Below, piece by piece: positions 51,944-64,000 of a DNA stretch of 64,000 bases. Origin of the DNA: Alphaproteobacteria bacterium. GTDB taxonomy: Bacteria > Pseudomonadota > Alphaproteobacteria > UBA6615. Every line of letters begins with the position of its first letter. The stretch's first letter is position 1. The stretch is taken from assembly GCA_965205535.1 (NCBI GenBank), contig CBDBHH010000005.1, forward strand, positions 266,712 through 330,711, read 5' to 3'. The position numbers and the translations under genes were made by a program. The notes below the pieces were generated by a model. The model searched no databases and had not been told where the DNA came from. It was given only the letters and a program-made list of their open reading frames with translations.

Positions 51944-52351
51944 TCAGGCGCCGCTGGCCGAACAAGCCAATTCAAGCCGCGTCTCTTCGGCCAGCAGAAG
52001 CGCCCACGTGTCGGCCGGCATGAAACGCGGTGCCAGATACTTGTAAAGGTCGCGCAAAAGGGGCGTCACGGCATAGGGGTCAGAAATATTGCCCGGCAGG
52101 CGGTCCCATGATTCCGCGATCTCGTCCCAGGGGTTCAGGCGGGCGAACATCTCATCGCGAATATCGCGGATTGCGCTGCGGTGGAATTCAAAATTTTCGA
52201 ACAGGGAAACGATATTCGAAAGGCGCGCATCGATCTCGGCCAGGCTAAGTCCCAACGCGTGAACGGGGACTGAAATAAGCCGGGCGACCGGATCTACATC
52301 GCTGAGAATGCTCGCATGGTGGGCAAAGTCGCGGCGCACTATTTTTCGCAA
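51944..52351 (-). CDS. hypothetical protein (possible gene remnant) abutting the island's left direct repeat
   Basis: 135 aa ORF whose first codons overlap repeat copy 1; no motif recognised. Confidence 0.3.
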   Translation of the reverse strand: MRKIVRRDFAHHASILSDVDPVARLISVPVHALGLSLAEIDARLSNIVSLFENFEFHRSAIRDIRDEMFARLNPWDEIAESWDRLPGNISDPYAVTPLLRDLYKYLAPRFMPADTWALLLAEETRLELACSASGA

Positions 52352-52912
52352 TCAGTAGTTAGGGGCTTCAGTCCAGTGCCATGGGCAGGACCGGCTGTTC
52401 CGGCCGCCCCGCCACCGCGCCGGGAACCGTGAACCGCCTGCCGCCGAATATATCGGCGACGGTCAGCATCTGCTGCATTCGGGTTCCCCAACTTCACACC
52501 CCGCGCCTTGGCGGCCTGCAAGGCTGCCTTCGTGCGGATGGAAATGGATTCCCGCTCATGCTCGGCCACAGCGGCCAGAATGTGCATGGTCAGGCGATTT
52601 GCCTCCGGCATATCGACGGCCACAAAGTCCGCACCGCTCTCCATCAGATTTGAAATGAAGGCGACACTCCGTGCCAACCTGTCCAGTCTGGCAATGAGCA
52701 AGGGTGCCTTCTTCTGGCGGCAAAGGGTTAGGGCTTCAGCTTAGGGCAGGGCGGTCATTCTTCCTGCCGCTCTCGATCTCCGTGAATTCAACCAGCAATT
52801 CACCACGACCGGCAATGAAGCGGGTCACTGCTTCGCGCTGCGCTTCCAGGCCAAGGCCGGAACGGCCTTGCCTATCAGTCGATACCCGGAAATAGCCCAC
52901 AAAATCAGTCAT
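52339..52912 (-). pseudogene. serine recombinase (resolvase/invertase family) with a +1 frameshift near 52731-52733; its 3' end lies inside the direct repeat
   Basis: N-terminal fragment MTDFVGYFRVSTDRQGRSGLGLEAQREAV... (catalytic Ser context) ends at NDRPALS*. Removing one A from cctaagct restores ...NDRPALAEALTLCRQKKAPLLIARLDRLARSVAFISNLMESGADFVAVDM...KARGVKLGNPN. Confidence 0.6.
52347..52473. repeat. 127-bp direct repeat, copy 1 (left boundary of the island)
   Basis: Identical to 62675..62801 except for 2 mismatches (G/A at 52370 and C/T at 52427 in copy-1 coordinates). Confidence 0.8.
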
Positions 52913-53010
52913 GTGAGACAGTCTAGCGGCCTTCCGTATAAAAATCAAACGTGGGTTTGATTTTTATACAACTTAAACCAATGCCCTTTAAAAGGGCGCA
53001 AACAGCCCCA

Positions 53011-55323
53011 CTATCCCTTCTTTGTGAAAGCGATAGTTCTGGTGCAATGATTGACGAGTTCCTGATCGTTGATGATCTCTATAGCATATGCGGGGTTTGT
53101 TTCATGGTGAAACTTGTTGGCATAGTCGAGCAGTTTACGGAGCTCGTCAGCATCCGCCTGATTCAAAATCGGTGTTCCTGCTGTCAATGCCTGCACACAT
53201 TCACTGTGGAATGGCCCCAACATTTTACCCGGCGGAAAATGGGCGGGGTAGGCAACACGCAAAAAGGCTTCCAGAACATAGCGCAGGGCAGTAGCAACCT
53301 CTCGCGCTTTGCTTTGATCAGACTGGTTAAGATACTGCTGAATCAGGGCATGTCGCTTATCATGCTCCGTGATGCAATCCTGCGTTACGTCCCAAGTATC
53401 AATAGTTGATGATTGACCGCTTCGGATGATGTGCAGCGCAGCGCGGGCTGTCTTATCAGCGCCTTCCCAAACCTGACAAAGGAACGGTTTTGAGTGTGAA
53501 AGAAGGATAACCTGCTGAACACGCTGTGCCAGCCCCCGAACCTCTTGAATCGTTGCGAGTGATCTATGCTCATCCAGACTGGTCATCGGATCATCAATGA
53601 CAATGACCTTTTGTGCTAGCCCTGCATCCTGATCAAGAGACGCAAGAAAGAAAGCAAGAGCCAGGGTGTTTCTATCTCCGGCGCTCATCGTATTCCTGAA
53701 TGAAGGGCCATTATTACTGGCAAGCGGCACAGAAACATTGTTGATCAACACATTGTATGTGCATGATGATCCGCCTCTGTTATTTTGAGCGGAAACGCTA
53801 TCCAGCCGGAAACCTGCATTGAACTTACCCAGGTAATCGTTGATCGCCTGCTGATATGTGGCGAAGATACTGGCGCAATATTGTTCAAGGTCAGTCTTTG
53901 CCTTGTCACGCTTCTCCTCTGTTTTCTTCTTTTCCCCTTTCTCTGCCAGATAAGCATCGCAATGCTTTGCCACATCTGATTCAAATCGTGCCTTGATCGT
54001 TTTCAATCTGTTCAAGTCATCCGTTAGCGTTGCCACATTAGCTGTGGCCGCTTTTTCTTTCACGGCCTGGATCGGATCATTGCATTCGATCAGGCTTGAA
54101 GAGAGCCCTGTAATGGCCTCACGATGCCCGTCATAGGATTTTACAGCCTCAAGAATATCTTCGGAAAGAGTCATCTTCTCAAGAGGTGAGGCCAGCTTTG
54201 CTCTCAAGATTTCAAGGATAGGCTCACGCGCTGCTTTCCAGGCGCGGGCAATCTCTGCTGTATCGACCTGAATAGCAAGAATATCCGTGAATTTCCGCCA
54301 GAATTCACCGTTCTGAATTGCTTCACTGACAGCACGTTCAAAGGCAGATTGGATTTCTCCCTTGTGAGCATCAGCAATCGACTTTCCAATGTCAGTGATA
54401 GCCTGCTTCAGGGAAGTGTAAACATCACTGAAATAGGTCTCATAGTGAGCAATAATATCTGAATCTTTCAGCTCTTGGTCACAGAACGGGCATCGCTGTT
54501 CATCATCAGAAGAGTCGGCGATCTTCTGCATCCCCTCACCAATCCAGGACTCCGCACCTTTACCCAATTTTTCAAGATGCTGCTTCACTCTGGTTGTTGC
54601 TTCGACCTGCAATCCAGGCAAGTCACGTTGAAGGATTGCTTCAATCGCAGCGGTATCGAATTCAGGCAGTGATAGGGGCTTGAACTCGCCTTGCTTATTG
54701 ATTGGATCAGCGTCTTTCGCAGCGGCCAGATTTCGTTCAGCCTGCTGAATCTCATCATCTATATCTATTTTGGGATTCTTCTGCAACGCGCAGAAGTCCT
54801 CAACATTAATTGTGCCTCGCGCCTTGACAGGAATAGCCGCTTCCTTGGTTTTCAGGGTGCGATTATGCTCTTCGATTTTGCTGATATGCCCTTTCAGGGA
54901 TTCATTCAGCGCAATCCCCTGCGCCCCTAGAATAAGCTCATGCAGCTTCTGTTTATGGCCAGAATCAACTACAACTCCCGAACAAACATTCTCGACCACA
55001 AAGTGATCGTCGAAAATAGCGATTTCCGGGAGATGGGTCTGCCATGCACCATTTTGAAAAATGAACGATTGCTGGCCATTTGCCTGCACAACGATATGTG
55101 GATCGGCATTTGCATGAGGGGCGGTGCCGGATTGCAAGCGTTTCCGTTCTTCGATCAATGTTGGATTATTGGTGCTCAAAGAGCGTAGCAAATTGGCAAG
55201 GGTTGTCTTCCCTCGTCCATTCTCGGCATATATCAGCGTCATGCCGGAAAATCTCGTTTGCTGCCCTGGGGAGACGCTATCGAATTGCCCAACATTTCTG
55301 ATCAGTTGAATCTGCTCAATCAT
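53011..55323 (-). CDS. AAA_13-family ABC-type ATPase with coiled-coil/CxxC insertion and a C-terminal about 130-aa domain (RloC/PrrC-like putative anticodon nuclease)
   Basis: Walker A YAENGRGKTTL, central CPFCDQ in a predicted coiled coil (zinc-hook-like), ABC signature MSAGDRNTLALAF, Walker B VIVIDDPMTSLD, H-loop LLSHS. Confidence 0.65.
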   Translation of the reverse strand: MIEQIQLIRNVGQFDSVSPGQQTRFSGMTLIYAENGRGKTTLANLLRSLSTNNPTLIEERKRLQSGTAPHANADPHIVVQANGQQSFIFQNGAWQTHLPEIAIFDDHFVVENVCSGVVVDSGHKQKLHELILGAQGIALNESLKGHISKIEEHNRTLKTKEAAIPVKARGTINVEDFCALQKNPKIDIDDEIQQAERNLAAAKDADPINKQGEFKPLSLPEFDTAAIEAILQRDLPGLQVEATTRVKQHLEKLGKGAESWIGEGMQKIADSSDDEQRCPFCDQELKDSDIIAHYETYFSDVYTSLKQAITDIGKSIADAHKGEIQSAFERAVSEAIQNGEFWRKFTDILAIQVDTAEIARAWKAAREPILEILRAKLASPLEKMTLSEDILEAVKSYDGHREAITGLSSSLIECNDPIQAVKEKAATANVATLTDDLNRLKTIKARFESDVAKHCDAYLAEKGEKKKTEEKRDKAKTDLEQYCASIFATYQQAINDYLGKFNAGFRLDSVSAQNNRGGSSCTYNVLINNVSVPLASNNGPSFRNTMSAGDRNTLALAFFLASLDQDAGLAQKVIVIDDPMTSLDEHRSLATIQEVRGLAQRVQQVILLSHSKPFLCQVWEGADKTARAALHIIRSGQSSTIDTWDVTQDCITEHDKRHALIQQYLNQSDQSKAREVATALRYVLEAFLRVAYPAHFPPGKMLGPFHSECVQALTAGTPILNQADADELRKLLDYANKFHHETNPAYAIEIINDQELVNHCTRTIAFTKKG

Positions 55324-56525
55324 CCGGCCACCTCATTTTTCTTCAAACAAGCTCCGCCTGGATCATAGACGTATCCTGAAATTGTGCCGTCCTTGATGCG
55401 CTCGACGGCTTCCTTGATGACAAAAAGCGGGACAAGGAACCATTCACGCGGGATCACTGGCCGTCCAAACCTGTCCTTGATCTCAACCTCAAGGCGGGCA
55501 GGCTCGAAAATGCGGTGAATGAGGTTTTCCAGCTTGGTGCGGTTGATGTTGTAAAGCTCGTAGGTCGCCACGATCTCCACATTCGCCATGAGGAATGTTG
55601 GCTGAAGGTGCGCCCCTGCAATCCGCTTCTCAACGCTCATATTGGTGACGCCAATCTTGTGAACCAGCTCCCGGTTTTCTTCGACAAGCGGGTGTTCTGA
55701 CTTGCTGCGCAGCACATAAATGATGCCACTTGCTTCATCCCCGTCGATCGTCTGATCAGAAAATAGCGGGCCTGCGGTTGGCTCTGTGATCCTACGGCCT
55801 GCTTCGTCCTTGTTCAGGGCTCGCTGTAGCGAGCGCATCAGCATGTTGCTCTTGGTGCCGTTGTCAAAAATCACGCGAAGGCGGGCGTCTGTGCGCCCCT
55901 GATCGGTGATTGTCGTTTCGCCTTTCTCGGCCACATATGCCTTCTGGCCTCCGACAATGAAGAACCGGCCTTTCTCGATCTCGGCCTTCATCTCGAAGGG
56001 ACGTGTCTCACGCAAGCCAGAATTCAGCTCTGCCTGCACCTGCTCAAACAGGGGCTTGAAGGTCTCAAAATCCTCGCAGCGGGTGCGACTGGCCACTTCA
56101 TCAGCAGCGGCTCTTTTCTCGGCGGTCGATCGGACGTGCTTCAGCTCGGTGATCGGCGGCGCATCGAGCTCGACGCCAAGCTCGGCCAGCAGCGCGTCAT
56201 CATCCAGCTCGGCTGGGTCTGCATCTGCGGTGATTGCAGCCATGTCACCAAGCAAGCCTTGATGATCCATTGGCTCGACCAATTCCCGGCAATCCTTCAG
56301 CTTGCGGATACGATCCAACCGAACGGCATAGAGCCGTTCAAAAATATCCCGGTCTTCACCATGCAGGGGAGGGCGGCCATGCTCTTCAGCAAAGCGTTGC
56401 ACTTCCTCAAAGCCTGCAATGACACGCTGTTCGCGGGGGGTGTATGTTGCAGCCTTCTTGGTCTGCACCTCGACGCCAAGCTCGGCCAGCAGCGCGTCAT
56501 CATCTTGTGTGAATTCCTTAGCCAT
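55320..56525 (-). CDS. T5orf172/GIY-YIG-like nuclease-domain protein with duplicated N-terminal DDDALLAELGVE motif
   Basis: GIIYVLRS ... HKIGVTNMSVEKRIAGA matches the T5orf172/MUG113 pattern (YV...KIG.T.....R). A 37-bp perfect DNA repeat (56168-56203 and 56469-56505) encodes the duplicated peptide; overlaps the helicase gene by 8 nt. Confidence 0.55.
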   Translation of the reverse strand: MAKEFTQDDDALLAELGVEVQTKKAATYTPREQRVIAGFEEVQRFAEEHGRPPLHGEDRDIFERLYAVRLDRIRKLKDCRELVEPMDHQGLLGDMAAITADADPAELDDDALLAELGVELDAPPITELKHVRSTAEKRAAADEVASRTRCEDFETFKPLFEQVQAELNSGLRETRPFEMKAEIEKGRFFIVGGQKAYVAEKGETTITDQGRTDARLRVIFDNGTKSNMLMRSLQRALNKDEAGRRITEPTAGPLFSDQTIDGDEASGIIYVLRSKSEHPLVEENRELVHKIGVTNMSVEKRIAGAHLQPTFLMANVEIVATYELYNINRTKLENLIHRIFEPARLEVEIKDRFGRPVIPREWFLVPLFVIKEAVERIKDGTISGYVYDPGGACLKKNEVAG

Positions 56526-58575
56526 TGGCGGCCTCCTGCTTCATTCGCGCAAGATAGGCAACGCCTTCTGCCATTTTCTTTTCCCAGGCATCAGACGATG
56601 TGAGGGACGGCAACCGGCCACGATCCTGCTTGAATTTCAGGGCGCGTTGCGCAAGGTCTCGCGCCTCTTCAGGGGTGAGTTTGATCTTCTTGGCTGAAAT
56701 GATCGCCGCAATCCTCTTCAGGCTCTCTTCGCTCATGGTCTTTGCCAGGATCGCGTATGCCTCACCGAATGGATTGATCCGGTCGATCAAGTCAATGTCC
56801 AGTTCCCGCACGTCCATTGCGAATTTCCGCACCCCGTCGATCAGGGCGGTATTGCCGCCGGGATTGTCATCATCATCGCCGCCGGACAGGGCGATTTCCT
56901 TTGCCTTCTGTGTCAGGTTAAGGGCGGCAATCGCATGTTGCCGCACGGCTTCCTGATCCTCTGCATCCAGCTCCGGGAATTTGTCTCCGACGATCTTGCC
57001 CATGCGCACCTGTGTCAGCTCTTCTGGCACAAGCTCTTCATCAAACAGGCCGCGCTCGATCGCGGTCTTGTCTTGCACAAAGGCGGTGATCACTTCGTTC
57101 AAATCCTCACGGCAAATCCGTTCGGCTTCCTTGCTCTTCGGCTCAGCAAGTCCCTTGATTTCGATCTGAAAGCTGCCCTGTTCCTCATTGAAGCCGATAT
57201 TCGCCTTGTTCGGATCATAGCCGCCTTCGCCATAATCAAAGCCCTCTACAGGGCCGCTATTGGCGTTCTTGGGCGTGAAATTGAAGCGGGGCGCTAGCAC
57301 CTGCTCCATCAACAGGCTGGCGGCAATGGCCTTCAGCGTGTCATTGATGGCTTCGGTCACTGCCTCTTCAGACGCATCCGGCGCGGCAATCAGGTTTGTG
57401 AAGCGGGCGCGTGATTTGCCCTTCGCATCACGGGTTGCCCGTCCAATGATCTGCACGATCTCGGTGAGACTGGCACGATAACCAACAGTCAGGGCGTGTT
57501 CGCACCAAATCCAGTCAAAGCCTTCCTTGGCCATTCCCAGGGCAATGATGATGTCCACATGATCCCGGTTGTCCTTGTGCGCCGGGTTTTTCAGCGCAGC
57601 GGAAACACGGTCACGCTTGGCGGGTTCATCATCCACCAGGTCAGCGATTTTCAGCACACGGCCTTCAGATGTTTTGACAAGCTGGAAACCTGTTTGTGGA
57701 TCAGGCCCTTGCCATTCACCTAACTCTTCCATGATGTGCTCGACTTCGCGGTGCTTGTCCTTGGTGCTCTCACGGGAATTGACGTTTGGGATATGCAGGA
57801 TCGTCTTCTCGTTCGGATCGAGCACCTTCAGGATGTCATCGGCATAGGAGCCGGAATAGAAGAAATAGCCGATGTCGAGCGTCTTCAGGTATTGGTAGCC
57901 GTTCAACTGCTCATAGTAGGTGTAGGTGACGCTATCGAATTTCGCTTCATCCTCCGGCGACAGGACGGCTTCTGCATCGCCCCGGAAATACGATCCCGTC
58001 ATGGCGACAAGATGCACCTTGTCGCGGGAAATGAAGTCTCCCAGGTGCTGCCCCAGCTTGTTGTCCGGGTTGGCGGAAACATGGTGGAATTCGTCAACCG
58101 CAATCAGCCGGTTGTCGAAGGCTTCCACGCCGAATTTGTCCACGGCAAAGCGGAACGTGGCATGGGTGCAGACAAGCACCTGATCGTCACTGTCCAGGAA
58201 GGCACCAACTGAATTGACCTTGCCGCCGTCCGTGCCGGGGGCGTTGCACAGATTCCATTTTGGCTGCACTGTCCAGTCAGCCCAAAAGCCGAATTTTGAC
58301 AGCGGCTCATCATTGAAGCTGGAGCCGATAGACTTCTCCGGCACCACGACGATTGCTTGCTTCAGCCCCTGATTTTGCAGCTTGTCGAGCGCAATGAACA
58401 TCAGCGCACGGCTTTTCCCGGATGCAGGCGGCGACTTGATCAGAAGATATTGCTCGCCCCGTTTCTCAAAGGCGCGTTCCTGCATTGTCCGCATTCCAAG
58501 CTCGTTGGACTTGGTTGAATTGCCGGTCTGGGCGTAGGTCACGGAAACGGAGGGGACGGATTTCTGAACGGTCAT
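56518..58575 (-). CDS. DEAD/DEAH-box (SF2) helicase with a C-terminal about 250-aa extension
   Basis: Walker A LLIKSPPASGKS, DEAH-like VDEFHH, motif VI QIIGRATRD. Confidence 0.75.
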   Translation of the reverse strand: MTVQKSVPSVSVTYAQTGNSTKSNELGMRTMQERAFEKRGEQYLLIKSPPASGKSRALMFIALDKLQNQGLKQAIVVVPEKSIGSSFNDEPLSKFGFWADWTVQPKWNLCNAPGTDGGKVNSVGAFLDSDDQVLVCTHATFRFAVDKFGVEAFDNRLIAVDEFHHVSANPDNKLGQHLGDFISRDKVHLVAMTGSYFRGDAEAVLSPEDEAKFDSVTYTYYEQLNGYQYLKTLDIGYFFYSGSYADDILKVLDPNEKTILHIPNVNSRESTKDKHREVEHIMEELGEWQGPDPQTGFQLVKTSEGRVLKIADLVDDEPAKRDRVSAALKNPAHKDNRDHVDIIIALGMAKEGFDWIWCEHALTVGYRASLTEIVQIIGRATRDAKGKSRARFTNLIAAPDASEEAVTEAINDTLKAIAASLLMEQVLAPRFNFTPKNANSGPVEGFDYGEGGYDPNKANIGFNEEQGSFQIEIKGLAEPKSKEAERICREDLNEVITAFVQDKTAIERGLFDEELVPEELTQVRMGKIVGDKFPELDAEDQEAVRQHAIAALNLTQKAKEIALSGGDDDDNPGGNTALIDGVRKFAMDVRELDIDLIDRINPFGEAYAILAKTMSEESLKRIAAIISAKKIKLTPEEARDLAQRALKFKQDRGRLPSLTSSDAWEKKMAEGVAYLARMKQEAANG

Positions 58576-58578
58576 GGT

Positions 58579-61350
58579 CTATGCTTTTCTCTTTTGTCTG
58601 GTTGTTTTGGCCTCTGCGGTCATTTTGGTGTAAAGCTCGAACAGCTTTTCCAGCCGTTCGGTGTCATTGCGAAATCGTCTGCCGATATAGATGCGTTCAA
58701 GCACTTCGTCGTTGCGCTCATGCGCAGCGCGCAGGTTTTCGGGCATGGCGTCGGGTTTGTAGAGGTCCGCGATGGTGGCGGGGAAATGCGCCTCACGGGC
58801 CAAGAGGATGTCCTCTGCGCAGCGGGTCAGATCGGCGCGGTTTTTCTCGGTCAGTCTGGGGACGGGAAAGGTGTTCCAGCCGAGGGTGTTGGAATAGCGA
58901 TATCGGGTTTCCAACTTGCCACAGACCGTGGCGATCCAGACCAGATGAATGCGCGATGCGATCAGCGCCATGTTCCACAGTGGCGCGTCGTAGAGGGCGA
59001 AGGCGAGGTTTGAGACAATGGTCCCTCTTTCAGAATACCCACACGGCAAGAACTGACGTGTTTCAGAAGAAACACTCGGCACAATCATAACGGTTTCCGA
59101 GCCGCTCTGCCGCAGTTCTCCAAACTTGTGAGGTCGTTTTGCTGCATCTCTTGTTGCTTGCTTGGTACTGGCCAGACGCATTTGCTTCACAGCTTCAATT
59201 CTAGAAGCCAATTGAGGGGATTGCCCAACCCATTCGGCATCATCATCACCAATCCACAGACAGAAGCGTTCATTGCCTCTGATAAACTCCGATGATCCAT
59301 ATATTTTACGAACGATCTTCTTATACTGTTCATCAGTAAGTGCCAGCGCTGTGATCTCAGCCGGCTCAAGAAGGAGATTTCCTCCATCTGTGGGCTGATT
59401 GCCTTTTGTCATTTCAGAAATTATCGAAATTGGCTTCGAACACTTTAGGACTTCAACATTCGGCGCGCCCACCAAATAGGCGTTGATGTTCTCGACCTCT
59501 TTCATCACCGCCTCATTTTCGACATTCAGGCTATAGAGCCTGCGCGTCTGGTTCGTCATGTTCGACACCGCAATAATCGCCACGGTGACGCCCGCATTGT
59601 GGCTGGCAAGGTTGGCCCATTTAAACGATGTATGGGCAAAGCTGATATGGTGGCCGGTGGCAAAGATCGCGGGCCAGAGGATCGGCACCTGCTGTCCCTG
59701 ACAGATCGAATTGGTGGACACAAAGGCCGCGCTTGAATTGGTGTGCAGCCCAAAATCAGCAGCCTTCATGAACCAGCCCGCGACATAATCCAGTGTCTTC
59801 CAGTTCTTGACCCGCCCATCAAAGATCGCCTTCAGGTCTTCCTTCTGTTCCGTGCTTTGCCATTGGCTGCCAAGATACGGTGGATTACCGCAAATATAGG
59901 TCTCACCCCCTTCATTCTCAAAGTCGATCTCGGCTTGATCAACAGGTGTCATGAAAAGATCATCGCCATGCACCTTCACACCCGTTCCCGTGGGTGGGCA
60001 GATGCTCAACCAATCTACCCGCAAGGCATTACCACAGGTGATCCAGTTCATCGCATCCAGTGGCAAGAATTCGGCCAAGGCTTCCTTCTGGCCGCGATAG
60101 GTCACGTCACACTGATACTCGGCAATAATCAAAGCCAGCCGGGCAATTTCAGCGGGGAAGTCGCGCAGATCAATTCCCCGAAAATTAGTCAGTGGAATCT
60201 CGGTGTGCCGGTCGCCTTCACCGCGCCTTTTGTTGATTTCGGCCTCGATCTCCCGCATTTCCTTGTAGGCAATGACAAGGAAATTTCCTGATCCGCAGGC
60301 GGGATCAAATACCCTGATCTTGGCCATGCGGTTGCGCAGGTTCAGCAGCTTGCGGAGATTATCTTCTGCCTCTTCCAGCTTCTCGCGCAGGTCATCAAGA
60401 AACAGGGGATTGAGCACCTTCAGAATGTTCGGAACGCTCGTGTAGTGCATCCCCAAAGCCCCGCGCTCATCCTCATCGGCCACGGCCTGGATCATCGAGC
60501 CAAAAATATCGGGGTTGATTTTTGTCCAGTCCAGATTGCCGATATGCAGCAGGTAGGATCAGGCAATCTTGCTGAAGCGCGGCACGTCTGTTCCGTCTGA
60601 AAACAGGCCGCCATTCACATAGGGGAAGTCCTTTGCCCAACGAGCAATTCCGGCGGTGTCAAAGTCTTCAGCCCGCGTGTTCATCGAGCGGAAAATCTCG
60701 CTGATCACTTCATGGGTGTTCGAGCTATCCGGGGCGCTCATCTTCTCGATGGTGCATGTGAACAGGTCGGCCTTGCCGAAAATGTCGGTGTCTTCGGCAA
60801 AGAAACAGAAAATCAGCCGCGCCATGAAGTGGTTCATGTCGTGGCGGCGTTCTGCCTGCCCCCATTCGGGATTGTCTTTCAGCAGCTCCACATAGAGCCG
60901 GTTCAGGTGTCCGGTTGCCTTGATGTCGAAGGCATTGTCGCGGATTTGCTTGACGGTCGAGATTCCGGCCAGGGGCAGGAAAAAACCAAAGTGATCGGGG
61001 AAGTCGGGAAAATCACAGACAATGACTTCACCGCTATTCAGGTCTTCAGCCGAAAAATCGCTGCCGTCCGTTGCCAGCACAAATTTGGCCTTGGCCTTTG
61101 TGGTGGCGGGGCTTGCCTTCAGCTCGGCAAGGGTCTCGGCAACCTTGCCAGCAGGCGCGGCCTTGATATGGATATTGTTGGTCTGCAACACGCCTCCCAC
61201 ATCGGAGCGGTTGGACGTGCCTTTGCGCAGGCGCTTCAGGGTCGTCGGCTTGTTGCCGAATGCCTGAAGGAAGGCAAAGGCGAATTCTTTCGGCGCGAAT
61301 GGCTCGGCGGCAAGATTTGAGATTGCTTCTTCGATCTCGACGGCGTTCAT
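58579..61350 (-). pseudogene. MmeI-family type IIG restriction-modification enzyme (N-terminal endonuclease, then gamma-class N6-adenine MTase, then TRD) interrupted by an in-frame TGA at 60559..60561
   Basis: ORF 61350..60559 carries the MmeI-like nuclease/helical region (RLIFCFFAEDTDIFGK, FPYVNGGLF) and ends at ...PRFSKIA*. The same frame continues as SYLLHIGNLDWTKINPDIFGSMIQAV- into ORF 60495..58579, which carries MTase motifs I (FDPACGSGNFL) and IV (NPPY). Confidence 0.75.
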
Positions 61351-62432
61351 GTGCGCCCCTCGTCATTCGTCTCGCGTGTTCCCATTGGCAGGCCATACCA
61401 GATGGCTCGGCCTGCGCCATGCCGGACAAGCATTCCCTTGTCCATCAGGCTGCGGAATGTGGCTTTCAGGGTGTTCGGGCTGGCTCCGTGCTCCCGCACC
61501 ATGTCGCGGTTTGTAACGCGGCCATGCTGGCGGGCATAGTCCAGGATCATGACGGCCAGCTCTGGCAATTCAGCAAGGGCGCGTTCCTCGCGCTCTATCT
61601 TGTCGGCCAGGCGGCGCTTCTGGTGCTGCAAGGATCGCATGAAAAACAGCAGCCAGGGCTGCCAGTCCGGGGCATCGCTGCGGATGGTTGCCTGTGTCTG
61701 GCGCAAGGCCAGATAGTAGCCTTCCTTGCTGTGCTCGATCACGCTCTCAAGGGATGAATAGGGGACATAGGCATAGCCTGCCTGCAACAGCAGCAGGGTT
61801 GTGAGGACACGGCTCAAGCGTCCGTTTCCATCCTGAAAGGGATGGATTTCAAGGAATACCACGGTGAAGACAGCGACGATCAGCAGGGGGTGCAGGCGCT
61901 TCAGCTCTCGCGCCTCATTCAGCCATTGCAGCAGCTCCGTCATGCGCTGCGGCGTATCGAAGGGGGTGGCGGTTTCAAAGACGATCCCGACCATTTTGCC
62001 GGATGCGTCGAAGGCTCCCACGTCATTGCGCCCGGTCTTGTATTCGCCCCGGTGGCGTTCGTCTTTGGCGCCGTAACGCAGCAAGTCGCGGTGAAGCTGT
62101 TTGATGTGGTTTTCCGTGATGGGAATGTCCTGCCATGCCTGAAACACGGTCTCCATGACCTCGGCATAGCCTGCAACTTCCTGCTCGTCACGGCTATCGA
62201 ATTTCTTGATGTCCAGCTTGCCCAGCAGCTCTTCCACCTCACGATCAGACAGCTTGCTGCCCTCGATGCGGGTGGATGATCCGATGCTCTCGATCATCGC
62301 CACACGGCGAAGGGCTTGCAGCCGTTCCGGCGCAAGCGTTCCAAGAGCCCGCCATGCGCCCTTAAACTCGTCTATTTCGGAGAGAAGGGACAGTAATCCG
62401 GGTGTGATCTGAATCGTTTCGGTCTGAATCAT
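61347..62432 (-). CDS. Fic-family protein (AMPylation-type catalytic motif) with C-terminal winged-helix region
   Basis: Canonical HPFQDGNGRLSR motif; 361 aa; overlaps the MmeI-like gene start by 4 nt. Confidence 0.85.
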   Translation of the reverse strand: MIQTETIQITPGLLSLLSEIDEFKGAWRALGTLAPERLQALRRVAMIESIGSSTRIEGSKLSDREVEELLGKLDIKKFDSRDEQEVAGYAEVMETVFQAWQDIPITENHIKQLHRDLLRYGAKDERHRGEYKTGRNDVGAFDASGKMVGIVFETATPFDTPQRMTELLQWLNEARELKRLHPLLIVAVFTVVFLEIHPFQDGNGRLSRVLTTLLLLQAGYAYVPYSSLESVIEHSKEGYYLALRQTQATIRSDAPDWQPWLLFFMRSLQHQKRRLADKIEREERALAELPELAVMILDYARQHGRVTNRDMVREHGASPNTLKATFRSLMDKGMLVRHGAGRAIWYGLPMGTRETNDEGRT

Positions 62433-62435
62433 ACC

Positions 62436-62495
62436 CGTAAATATACCGGATTATGCCGGATTGTAAACCGGAATAATTGCCGGATTATACCCGAT
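62436..62495. promoter_or_regulatory. array of 4-5 direct repeats of [T/C]ATAATCCGG-like sequence upstream of the Fic gene (candidate operator/promoter)
   Basis: Minus-strand reading: cataatcggg tataatccgg caattattccgg tttacaatccgg cataatccgg; spacing about 10-12 bp. Confidence 0.4.
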
Positions 62496-62801: not shown

Positions 62802-62960
62802 ATCCGCGCATATTGCACGCCGCCCACATCGAGGTCTCCCGCCGCCGCCATCTCGCGCCGGAAGTTGGCCGCCTTCCGCGCCCCGAGCTCCTCCATCACG
62901 ATCAGCCCGGCCATGGGTGCGTCCTCACGTTCCAGCACCCCGCGCAGGTCCCGCACCACG

Positions 62961-64000
62961 CCGATGATCATCACCGCCGGCCAGCAGGAGACGGGCCACG
63001 GCCTGACCGAGCCGCTGCTCTATGACCCGCTCGCCCCCATCGCAACACCGGTGGTGAAGTGGGCGACGGAGGTGACCCGGCTGGAAGATTTGCCGCGCAT
63101 CATGCGACGTGCCGGCAAGGTGGCGATGACCGCCCCGACGGGGCCGGTGTTCATCTCGCTGCCCGGTGACGTGCTGAACGACCGCAAGGGCATCGATCTG
63201 GGATCGCGCACCCGCGTCGACACCGCCATGCGACCGTCCGATGCGGGTCTGGAAGCGCTGGCCGACCGTCTGCTCGCCGCGAAACGACCCGCGATCCTGG
63301 CCGGCAACGAGGTGGTGACGTCCGACGCATTGGCAGAGGTTGCGCGGTTTGCGGAAGTCCTGGGCGCGCCAGCGTTTCAGCAAACCACGGCCTATGGTTC
63401 GTTTTTCCCGTCCGAACATCCGGCCTTCATGGGCGCCCTGTCGCGAAACCAGAAGGAGGTTCGCGGGATTCTCGAAGACTATGACCTGCTGGTCGTGGTC
63501 GGGGCGGATGTCTTGCGCATGTCGGTGATGAGCGAGACCGAACCTCTGCCCGACGGCATGCCGATCGTCCAGATCGGCCTGTTCGATTGGGATATGGGCA
63601 AGAATTATCCCGCCGACACGGCCGTGCGCGGCGACGTGCGCGAGACCCTCGCAGTGCTGAACCCGGTGATCGAGGGGCGGACCGACCATGCGGACACGGC
63701 CAAAGCCCGCCTCGCGGCGGTGGCCGACAGCAACTGGTCGGCGAAGCGCGCGCGACGCGCCGTCGAGCTGGCCGCTGATGCCGAGGTAACGCCGATCCGG
63801 TCGGACTGGTTGATGATGACCATCGCCGACACGCTTCCCGACGGTGCGATCACGGTCAACGAAGGCCTGACCACGACCTGGAACCTGCTCCAGTATCTGC
63901 CGTTGCGCGATCGCTACGACTTCCATTCCTTCGCCAGCGGCGGCATCGGCTGGGCCCTGCCCGCGGCCGTGGGCGTACAGATCGCCCAGCCCGACCGCCC
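62961..64000 (+). pseudogene. thiamine-diphosphate-dependent enzyme of the benzoylformate decarboxylase / acetolactate synthase family, 5'-truncated (N-terminal Pyr domain absent), running off the window end
   Basis: In-frame translation from 62961 gives PMIITAGQQETGHGLTEPLLYDPL...VKWATEVTRLEDLP...GPVFISLPGDVL ... GGIGWALPAAVGVQIAQPDR, matching BFD-like central and ThDP-binding domains. None of the three plus frames upstream encodes the expected N-terminal about 170 aa. Confidence 0.6.

Follow-up and report, generated by a model that had tools for sequence, protein, structure and literature searches.

What kind of protein is encoded by the open reading frame (ORF) of 770 codons at positions 53011–55323 of a 64,000-nucleotide stretch of the alphaproteobacterial contig CBDBHH010000005.1 (lineage UBA6615; the whole stretch is called the window hereafter), and is it tied to the restriction-modification (RM) gene near which it lies? 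The initial annotation of this DNA had described it as a RloC/PrrC-like ATPase with a zinc-hook-like motif, situated in an island next to a disabled RM enzyme, and had left its strand unstated. The reading frame is present from ATG to stop on the minus strand, the plus-strand translation of the same interval containing many stops. With a probability of about 0.75, we consider the gene a member of the RloC family, that is, a Rad50/SMC-like ABC ATPase with a CxxC-tipped helical arm and a C-terminal HEPN ribonuclease domain, which is carried as cargo of the island and would act against phages by cutting transfer RNA (tRNA).

The RloC family was delineated by a screen for orthologues (Davidov & Kaufmann 2008, PMC2610378, supplementary Table 1) that relied on the ABC motifs, a CXXC sequence in a coiled-coil insert, and a C-terminal Arg-x3-Glu-x36–52-His arrangement, and counterparts of all three are found in the window protein. 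The ABC motifs comprise the Walker A motif or P-loop GRGKTT (residues 36–41, 55201–55218; this and all following features of the protein are on the minus strand), the signature MSAGDRNT (residues 546–553, 53665–53688), which aligns to the Rad50 signature region in searches of the PDB, the Walker B motif VIVIDDP (residues 573–579, 53587–53607) followed by the D-loop SLD, and the H-loop LLSHS (residues 607–611, 53491–53505). Inserted into the ABC head is a helical, coiled-coil-like stretch (residues ~126–499, 53827–54948) that carries the zinc-hook-like motif CPFC (residues 278–281, 54481–54492) in an apex loop formed by residues 261–285. The C-terminal part (residues ~645–770, 53014–53391) is an all-α, HEPN-like domain, in which R681-x3-E685 (53269–53283), followed after three further residues by R689, provides the putative catalytic Arg and Glu in HEPN helix 2 and conforms to the pattern Ex3[KR], and in which H739-H740 (53104–53109), located where the third core helix ends, which is the HEPN His position, are the putative catalytic His residues. 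All motifs named in the initial annotation (Walker A, signature, Walker B, H-loop and CPFC) were thus located in the translation.

These residues are strongly conserved. In 32 homologues sharing 55–93% identity, C278, C281, R681, E685, R689, N736, F738, H739 and H740 are invariant. The same picture emerges from a more divergent set of 83 sequences, composed of 82 full-length representatives at 30–60% identity and the window protein itself: C281, R681 and H740 are kept in all 83, C278 and E685 in 82, and H739 in 81, while in the ATPase head G38 and K39 are found in 81 and D577, D578 and H610 in every sequence. Judged by this conservation in 82 relatives, the motif features of the protein are not chance. 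The initial annotation had made its reading depend on alignment of the C-terminal domain with the Arg, Glu and His of the anticodon nucleases, and the reading holds on this point because C278, C281, R681, E685, H739 and H740 are invariant or nearly so. A profile of the C-terminal domain, searched against 1.84 billion representatives with a cutoff of E ≤ 0.001, matched 980 cluster representatives; among the 150 matches listed, the proteins are either ~670–790 residues long, the domain forming their C-terminal part, or fragments of lesser length.

An AlphaFold2 model of the 770-residue protein, built on the 32 homologues, has a mean predicted local distance difference test (pLDDT) score of 81.8. 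It shows a mixed α/β head made up of residues 1 to ~115 and ~500–645, of the SMC/Rad50 ABC type, split by the helical insertion, and a C-terminal domain that is entirely helical. The proposed insertion of roughly 400 residues with CPFCDQ is therefore there, at a somewhat smaller size (~375 residues), and the separate C-terminal domain, put at about 130 residues, measures ~125 (residues ~645–769). The CPFC motif lies at a disordered apex of low confidence (residues 261–285), which is to be expected since a metal-dependent dimer interface was modelled as a zinc-free monomer. A Foldseek search of the PDB with the whole model gave as its top matches the heads, with coiled coils, of SMC, Rad50, cohesin and condensin as well as Lamassu LmuB. 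In the C-terminal domain, E685-x3-R689 is placed in helix 2 of the bundle, and H739/H740 are placed at the end of helix 721–738, where the loop starts. HEPN is the fold assigned to the PrrC and RloC nuclease domains, and in HEPN proteins the acidic residue (Ex3[KR]) lies in helix 2 and the catalytic His at the end of helix 3 (Anantharaman et al., PMC3710099); the topology of Glu and His in the modelled domain fits this active site.

Membership in the family is further supported by homology to one of the listed orthologues. The 72 entries of Table S1 in PMC2610378 range from 643 to 897 residues, several having 763–771 residues and some having helicase neighbours. On a plasmid of Rhodoferax ferrireducens T118, tblastn against plasmids located a 770-residue protein annotated as "AAA family ATPase", near a "helicase-related protein"; it corresponds to entry 39 of Table S1 (Rhodoferax T118, 770 aa, "Helicase like"), a match resting on organism, length and neighbouring gene rather than on accession. 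BLASTP aligns residues 1–770 of the window protein with residues 1–770 of the Rhodoferax protein (30% identity, E-value 5e-89), placing CPFC on CPFC, RYVLE on RLFLE, and KFHHETNP on RFHHDTNP. In addition, the hook context CPFCDQEL...HYETYF follows the CxFC...HF/YF pattern of the RloC alignment in the 2008 supplement. With the elements used in that screen, end-to-end homology to a listed orthologue and a HEPN-like C-terminal domain, the RloC architecture suggested for this gene is borne out.

Searches with family profiles (hidden Markov models, HMMs) agree with this assignment in part. Pfam AAA_13 (PF13166) matches over the full length (E-value 1.5e-41, 143.4 bits against a gathering threshold of 36; residues 11–743 on profile positions 2–689 of 713). 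Within the PADLOC HMM library, which comes without curated cutoffs, the best model is PDC-S06 (PDLC04895; E-value 9.6e-77, residues 1–716 on profile positions 1–732 of 784), an untested single-gene candidate for phage defence from a "guilt-by-embedding" study of genes embedded in other defence systems. The PADLOC PrrC profile is confined to the stretch from signature to Walker B (profile positions 141–227 of 372, E-value 2.2e-7). Of the joint label RloC/PrrC-like, the RloC side is kept and the PrrC side is not; among the HMM searches proposed to check it, the AAA_13 match stands. No NCBIfam family reached its cutoff, the RecF, Rad50 and ABC matches being far below threshold (20–22 bits for the Rad50 models against cutoffs of 700–1000); PHROGs gave solely matches of unknown function or SbcC-like ones; and sequence searches of the PDB, with the single sequence and with a profile, yielded no PrrC or RloC structure, the closest entries being Rad50 heads, along with ABC transporters. 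Among more than 1300 homologues, many bear the name "wobble nucleotide-excising tRNase" in the naming of JGI and "AAA family ATPase" in that of NCBI. In public records, the name "AAA family ATPase", or none at all, is given to the window protein and those related to it; the evidence given above supports their assignment as RloC-type ABC-HEPN anticodon nucleases.

Several observations weigh against this assignment. The PrrC profile match stops short of the C-terminal domain, and Foldseek with this domain gave HEPN ribonucleases as best matches at an E-value of 0.11, which is not significant, helical bundles being prone to promiscuous matching. The arginine of the canonical HEPN Rx4-6H motif is absent, the corresponding sequence being N-[KR]-F-H-H; a conserved Arg four residues before the Glu is found instead, which is the arrangement of PrrC (R320/E324/H356) and of Geobacillus RloC (R692/E696/H737). 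The spacing between Glu and His is 53–54 residues, 1–2 beyond the published range of 36–52, and the Rhodoferax protein has the same spacing of 53. The CPFC apex, at which zinc binding and dimerisation would take place, is modelled with low confidence. Finally, the tie to the assayed Geobacillus and Acinetobacter RloCs runs only through published motifs and a listed orthologue, and it is by analogy that we infer a tRNase function for this subfamily.

The way in which the protein may act can be sketched from the RloC literature on Geobacillus and Acinetobacter, according to which the zinc hook and a DNA-dependent ATPase restrain the nuclease, DNA breaks activate it, and the wobble nucleotide is excised. 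By analogy, the window protein would be a tRNase responsive to DNA damage: its ATPase and zinc-hook region would keep the nuclease silent, DNA ends generated by phage or by damage would switch it on, and the HEPN site (R681, E685, H739/H740) would then cut tRNAs in the anticodon loop, perhaps with excision of the wobble nucleotide, upon which translation would stop and the infection abort. On the RloC reading, a plausible mechanism becomes available for the PADLOC candidate PDC-S06.

Turning to the surroundings of the gene, the island claimed for it is real: the guanine-plus-cytosine (GC) content falls to 0.50–0.57 over ~52–62 kb, compared with ~0.63 elsewhere in the window, and the ATPase gene itself has 48% against a window mean of 62%. 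Reading along the minus strand, on which all genes of the island mentioned here are located, the order is a Fic/SoFic-like gene at the head of the string (61347–62432; Pfam Fic, PADLOC SoFic 3.9e-50), an MmeI-like type IIG RM gene (58579–61350; Pfam MmeI_N, MmeI_hel, MmeI_Mtase, MmeI_TRD and MmeI_C), a YeeB-like DEAD/ResIII superfamily-2 helicase of 685 residues (56518–58575; Pfam), a YeeC-like T5orf172/MUG113 protein, GIY-YIG-like, of 401 residues (55320–56525; Pfam), the ATPase and, downstream, the two fragments of a split serine recombinase (52339–52948; Pfam Resolvase, profile positions 2–52 and 68–144 in two ORFs). The helicase and T5orf172 genes overlap by 8 nucleotides, and the T5orf172 and ATPase genes by 4 (ATGA, the ATPase ATG lying on the T5orf172 stop). 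The RM enzyme described as disabled does carry a nonsense codon: the MmeI-like gene has a single in-frame TGA (60559–60561, codon 264), at which an intact 911-residue homologue from a Kordiimonas metagenome-assembled genome has CGG (Arg). An internal ATG 63 nucleotides past the TGA could give a product comprising the methylase and target recognition domain without the nuclease domain. The split recombinase lies at the edge of the low-GC island, which suggests a decayed mobile element; a tRNA gene that could serve as integration site was sought within the 64-kb window and none was found. At the far edge of the island, an ORF of 333 codons (62925–63926) has no Pfam, NCBIfam or PADLOC match. A promoter-like site near the Fic/SoFic-like gene (62440–62467) and a weak terminator-like hairpin 14 nucleotides past the ATPase stop (52983–52997, minus strand) are merely suggestive, because the counts of such sites in the promoter and terminator scan were not above shuffled expectation.

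The three genes directly upstream of the ATPase have the composition described for the DnmA(YeeA)-YeeB-YeeC cluster of B. subtilis and Vibrio crassostreae (PMC9973331): an MmeI-family protein, a superfamily-2 helicase and a T5orf172 protein in one orientation. This module is extremely widespread and highly conserved, the helicase (with its PMBR repeat) occurring at 79–100% identity in more than 8000 clusters, and we compared 82 loci collected through it (numbered L090–L171). The T5orf172 gene lies directly downstream of the helicase in 72 of the 72 loci with room for it, and the MmeI-like gene precedes the helicase in 59 of 60; a second variable small gene is often found between these two. The place after T5orf172, on the other hand, is occupied by the ATPase in one locus out of 82 (L146, 7212–9497), where it belongs to a lineage 52% identical to the window copy. 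The contents of this slot, exemplified by positions 53011–55323 of the window, L090:13248–16560, L091:13268–17326 and the L146 interval, vary with the genome: besides the RloC-like ATPase, SIR2 and a DUF87/HerA-like ATPase followed by ArdC and AbiE occupy it in Phaeobacter inhibens, and small genes together with another type IIG enzyme in Parvibaculum. Given these counts, the preferred reading of the ATPase is that of an independent cargo gene occupying a variable slot after the module. The slot behaves as a hotspot for defence cargo and could be mined for new systems.

A similar conclusion is reached from the side of the ATPase, for which 88 loci were compared. No conserved partner gene was found over these loci, no neighbouring family occurring in more than nine; those encountered repeatedly are ParB-like proteins, serine recombinases, ArdA, type IIG enzymes, methylases and a TrwC relaxase. 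The MmeI-like/helicase/T5orf172 module is missing from 84 of the 88: helicase and T5orf172 genes accompany the closest relatives only, namely L001 and L009 (both 93% identical), in which the four-gene order of the window recurs, and, as remnants, L002 and L010. Identity to the Kordiimonas locus L009 is mosaic gene by gene (ATPase 93%, helicase 83%, T5orf172 64%, MmeI-like protein 66–69%), which suggests recombination between modules at gene boundaries. Relatives of the ATPase are frequent on plasmids and integrative and conjugative elements (ICEs), with relaxase, coupling protein, ParB and ArdA nearby, and some are in chromosomal defence-type neighbourhoods devoid of transfer genes. The ATPase is thus a stand-alone gene that moves horizontally and occupies variable slots, in conjugative elements as well as in defence islands. 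Recurring near its relatives (L001:4927–5738, L009:10619–11125, L003:6135–6641) are genes of anti-restriction (ArdA, KlcB-like) and of conjugation (coupling protein, relaxase), so that the defence gene travels with anti-defence genes on conjugative elements. According to published work, linkage of RloC to RM genes in cis is rare, and RloC-like ABC-HEPN genes occur in some cases in mobile neighbourhoods that also contain R-M and Fic/DOC genes; the context in the window agrees with both. As to the RM linkage that the initial annotation had invoked, a broken RM gene is indeed close by, but the locus counts indicate adjacency in a cargo slot and not a conserved partnership.

The same figures bear on the question whether the ATPase is a fourth functional component of the module, a guard in the style of PrrC, which the complex would silence until a phage disabled the latter. 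Such coupling would account for the common strand, for the successive stop/start overlaps, for the recurrence of the four-gene order in L009 and L001 and for the divergent copy at the same position in L146, and PrrC, an anticodon nuclease silenced by its RM partner, offers a precedent. We hold it to be distinctly unlikely, given that the ATPase is so rare in a slot flanked by near-constant T5orf172 and MmeI-like genes, and filled elsewhere by SIR2 with a HerA-like ATPase or by a type IIG enzyme, that the module is missing from nearly all ATPase loci, that identity to the Kordiimonas locus is mosaic, and that the MmeI-like gene is broken while the ATPase ORF is intact. A related and very doubtful possibility is that the RloC-like nuclease forms a PrrC-style second line wired to the MmeI-like/YeeB/YeeC module, sensing inhibition of the module or the products of its DNA cleavage; it draws on the two ATPase lineages (93% and 52% identical to the window copy) placed directly after T5orf172 and on the overlap in the window. 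If true, a defined partner in cis would be known for an RloC for the first time, and the enigmatic YeeABC cluster would gain a read-out.

Other alternatives concern the activity of the protein rather than its partners. It could be an active ABC-HEPN ribonuclease directed at something other than the tRNA anticodon loop, for instance messenger or ribosomal RNA, as HEPN domains cleave many classes of RNA, identity to the RloC orthologue, itself listed on bioinformatic grounds, is only 30%, just two RloCs have been assayed, and FHH stands where RloC often has Ser-His. Since the triad and the architecture are the ones by which RloC is defined, since those RloCs that have been tested are anticodon nucleases, and since no feature of the protein indicates a different substrate, we regard this as unlikely. 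It would be highly improbable, in our view, that the protein is a generic AAA_13/SMC-like ATPase of conjugative elements with a non-catalytic C-terminal bundle, binding DNA or protein in transfer, exclusion or maintenance. The frequency on plasmids and ICEs beside relaxase, coupling protein, ParB and ArdA genes would suit such a role, as would the non-significant Foldseek match to HEPN and the lack of a canonical Rx4-6H; yet R681, E685, H739 and H740 are near-invariant down to 30% identity, as in a catalytic site, the same residues align with those of the listed RloC orthologue, and chromosomal defence-type contexts occur from which transfer genes are missing. The assignment to RloC is accordingly retained, and its significance lies little beyond correct annotation, as the protein is an ordinary member of a known family.

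Comparison with known systems places the protein as follows. Hma (helicase, methylase, ATPase) was rejected, because it uses the 5-methylcytosine (m5C) methyltransferase HmaB, the methylase in the window being an N6-adenine enzyme of MmeI type, and because no Hma model was among the PADLOC matches. The likeness to DnmA-YeeB-YeeC, which showed no activity against the phages used to test it in B. subtilis but reportedly alters phage sensitivity in Vibrio crassostreae, lies in the same three-gene order and concerns the neighbours, not the ATPase; it differs in that the MmeI-like protein of the window keeps an N-terminal nuclease domain but carries a stop codon. With Rad50/SbcC and Lamassu LmuB the window protein shares the split ABC head and the coiled-coil arm, and with Rad50 also the CPxC hook, whereas it has an additional C-terminal HEPN domain and no Mre11/SbcD or LmuA partner gene in the window; with NCBIfam Rad50 models far below cutoff and no adjacent Mre11/SbcD gene, an identity as Rad50/SbcC was discarded. 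PrrC of the E. coli prr locus is likewise an N-terminal ABC ATPase joined to a C-terminal nuclease with an Arg/Glu/His triad, and its phage-triggered shut-off of translation would by analogy be shared. It is nevertheless a protein of ~400 residues lacking both coiled coil and zinc hook and always resides within a type Ic hsd locus, whereas the window protein, with 770 residues, a 375-residue insert and a partial profile match, lies beside MmeI-like type IIG, helicase and T5orf172 genes in place of hsdMSR; the gene was therefore not identified as PrrC. PDC-S06, to which the best HMM match was obtained, resembles it as a gene embedded in or next to other defence systems, and differs in being a computational label that has no assigned mechanism. 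The closest correspondence is with RloC of Geobacillus kaustophilus and Acinetobacter baylyi ADP1 (Davidov & Kaufmann 2008; Klaiman et al. 2012/2013). Apart from the longer Glu–His spacing (53–54 against 36–52) and an FHH sequence in place of the frequent Ser-His, the two have in common the ABC ATPase motifs, a long insert of helices that bears a CxFC hook around residue 280–290 (C291 in G. kaustophilus, C278 here), the C-terminal Arg-x3-Glu...His, a length within the orthologue range of 643–897 residues, and an existence as a stand-alone gene on mobile DNA that is only occasionally found beside RM genes.

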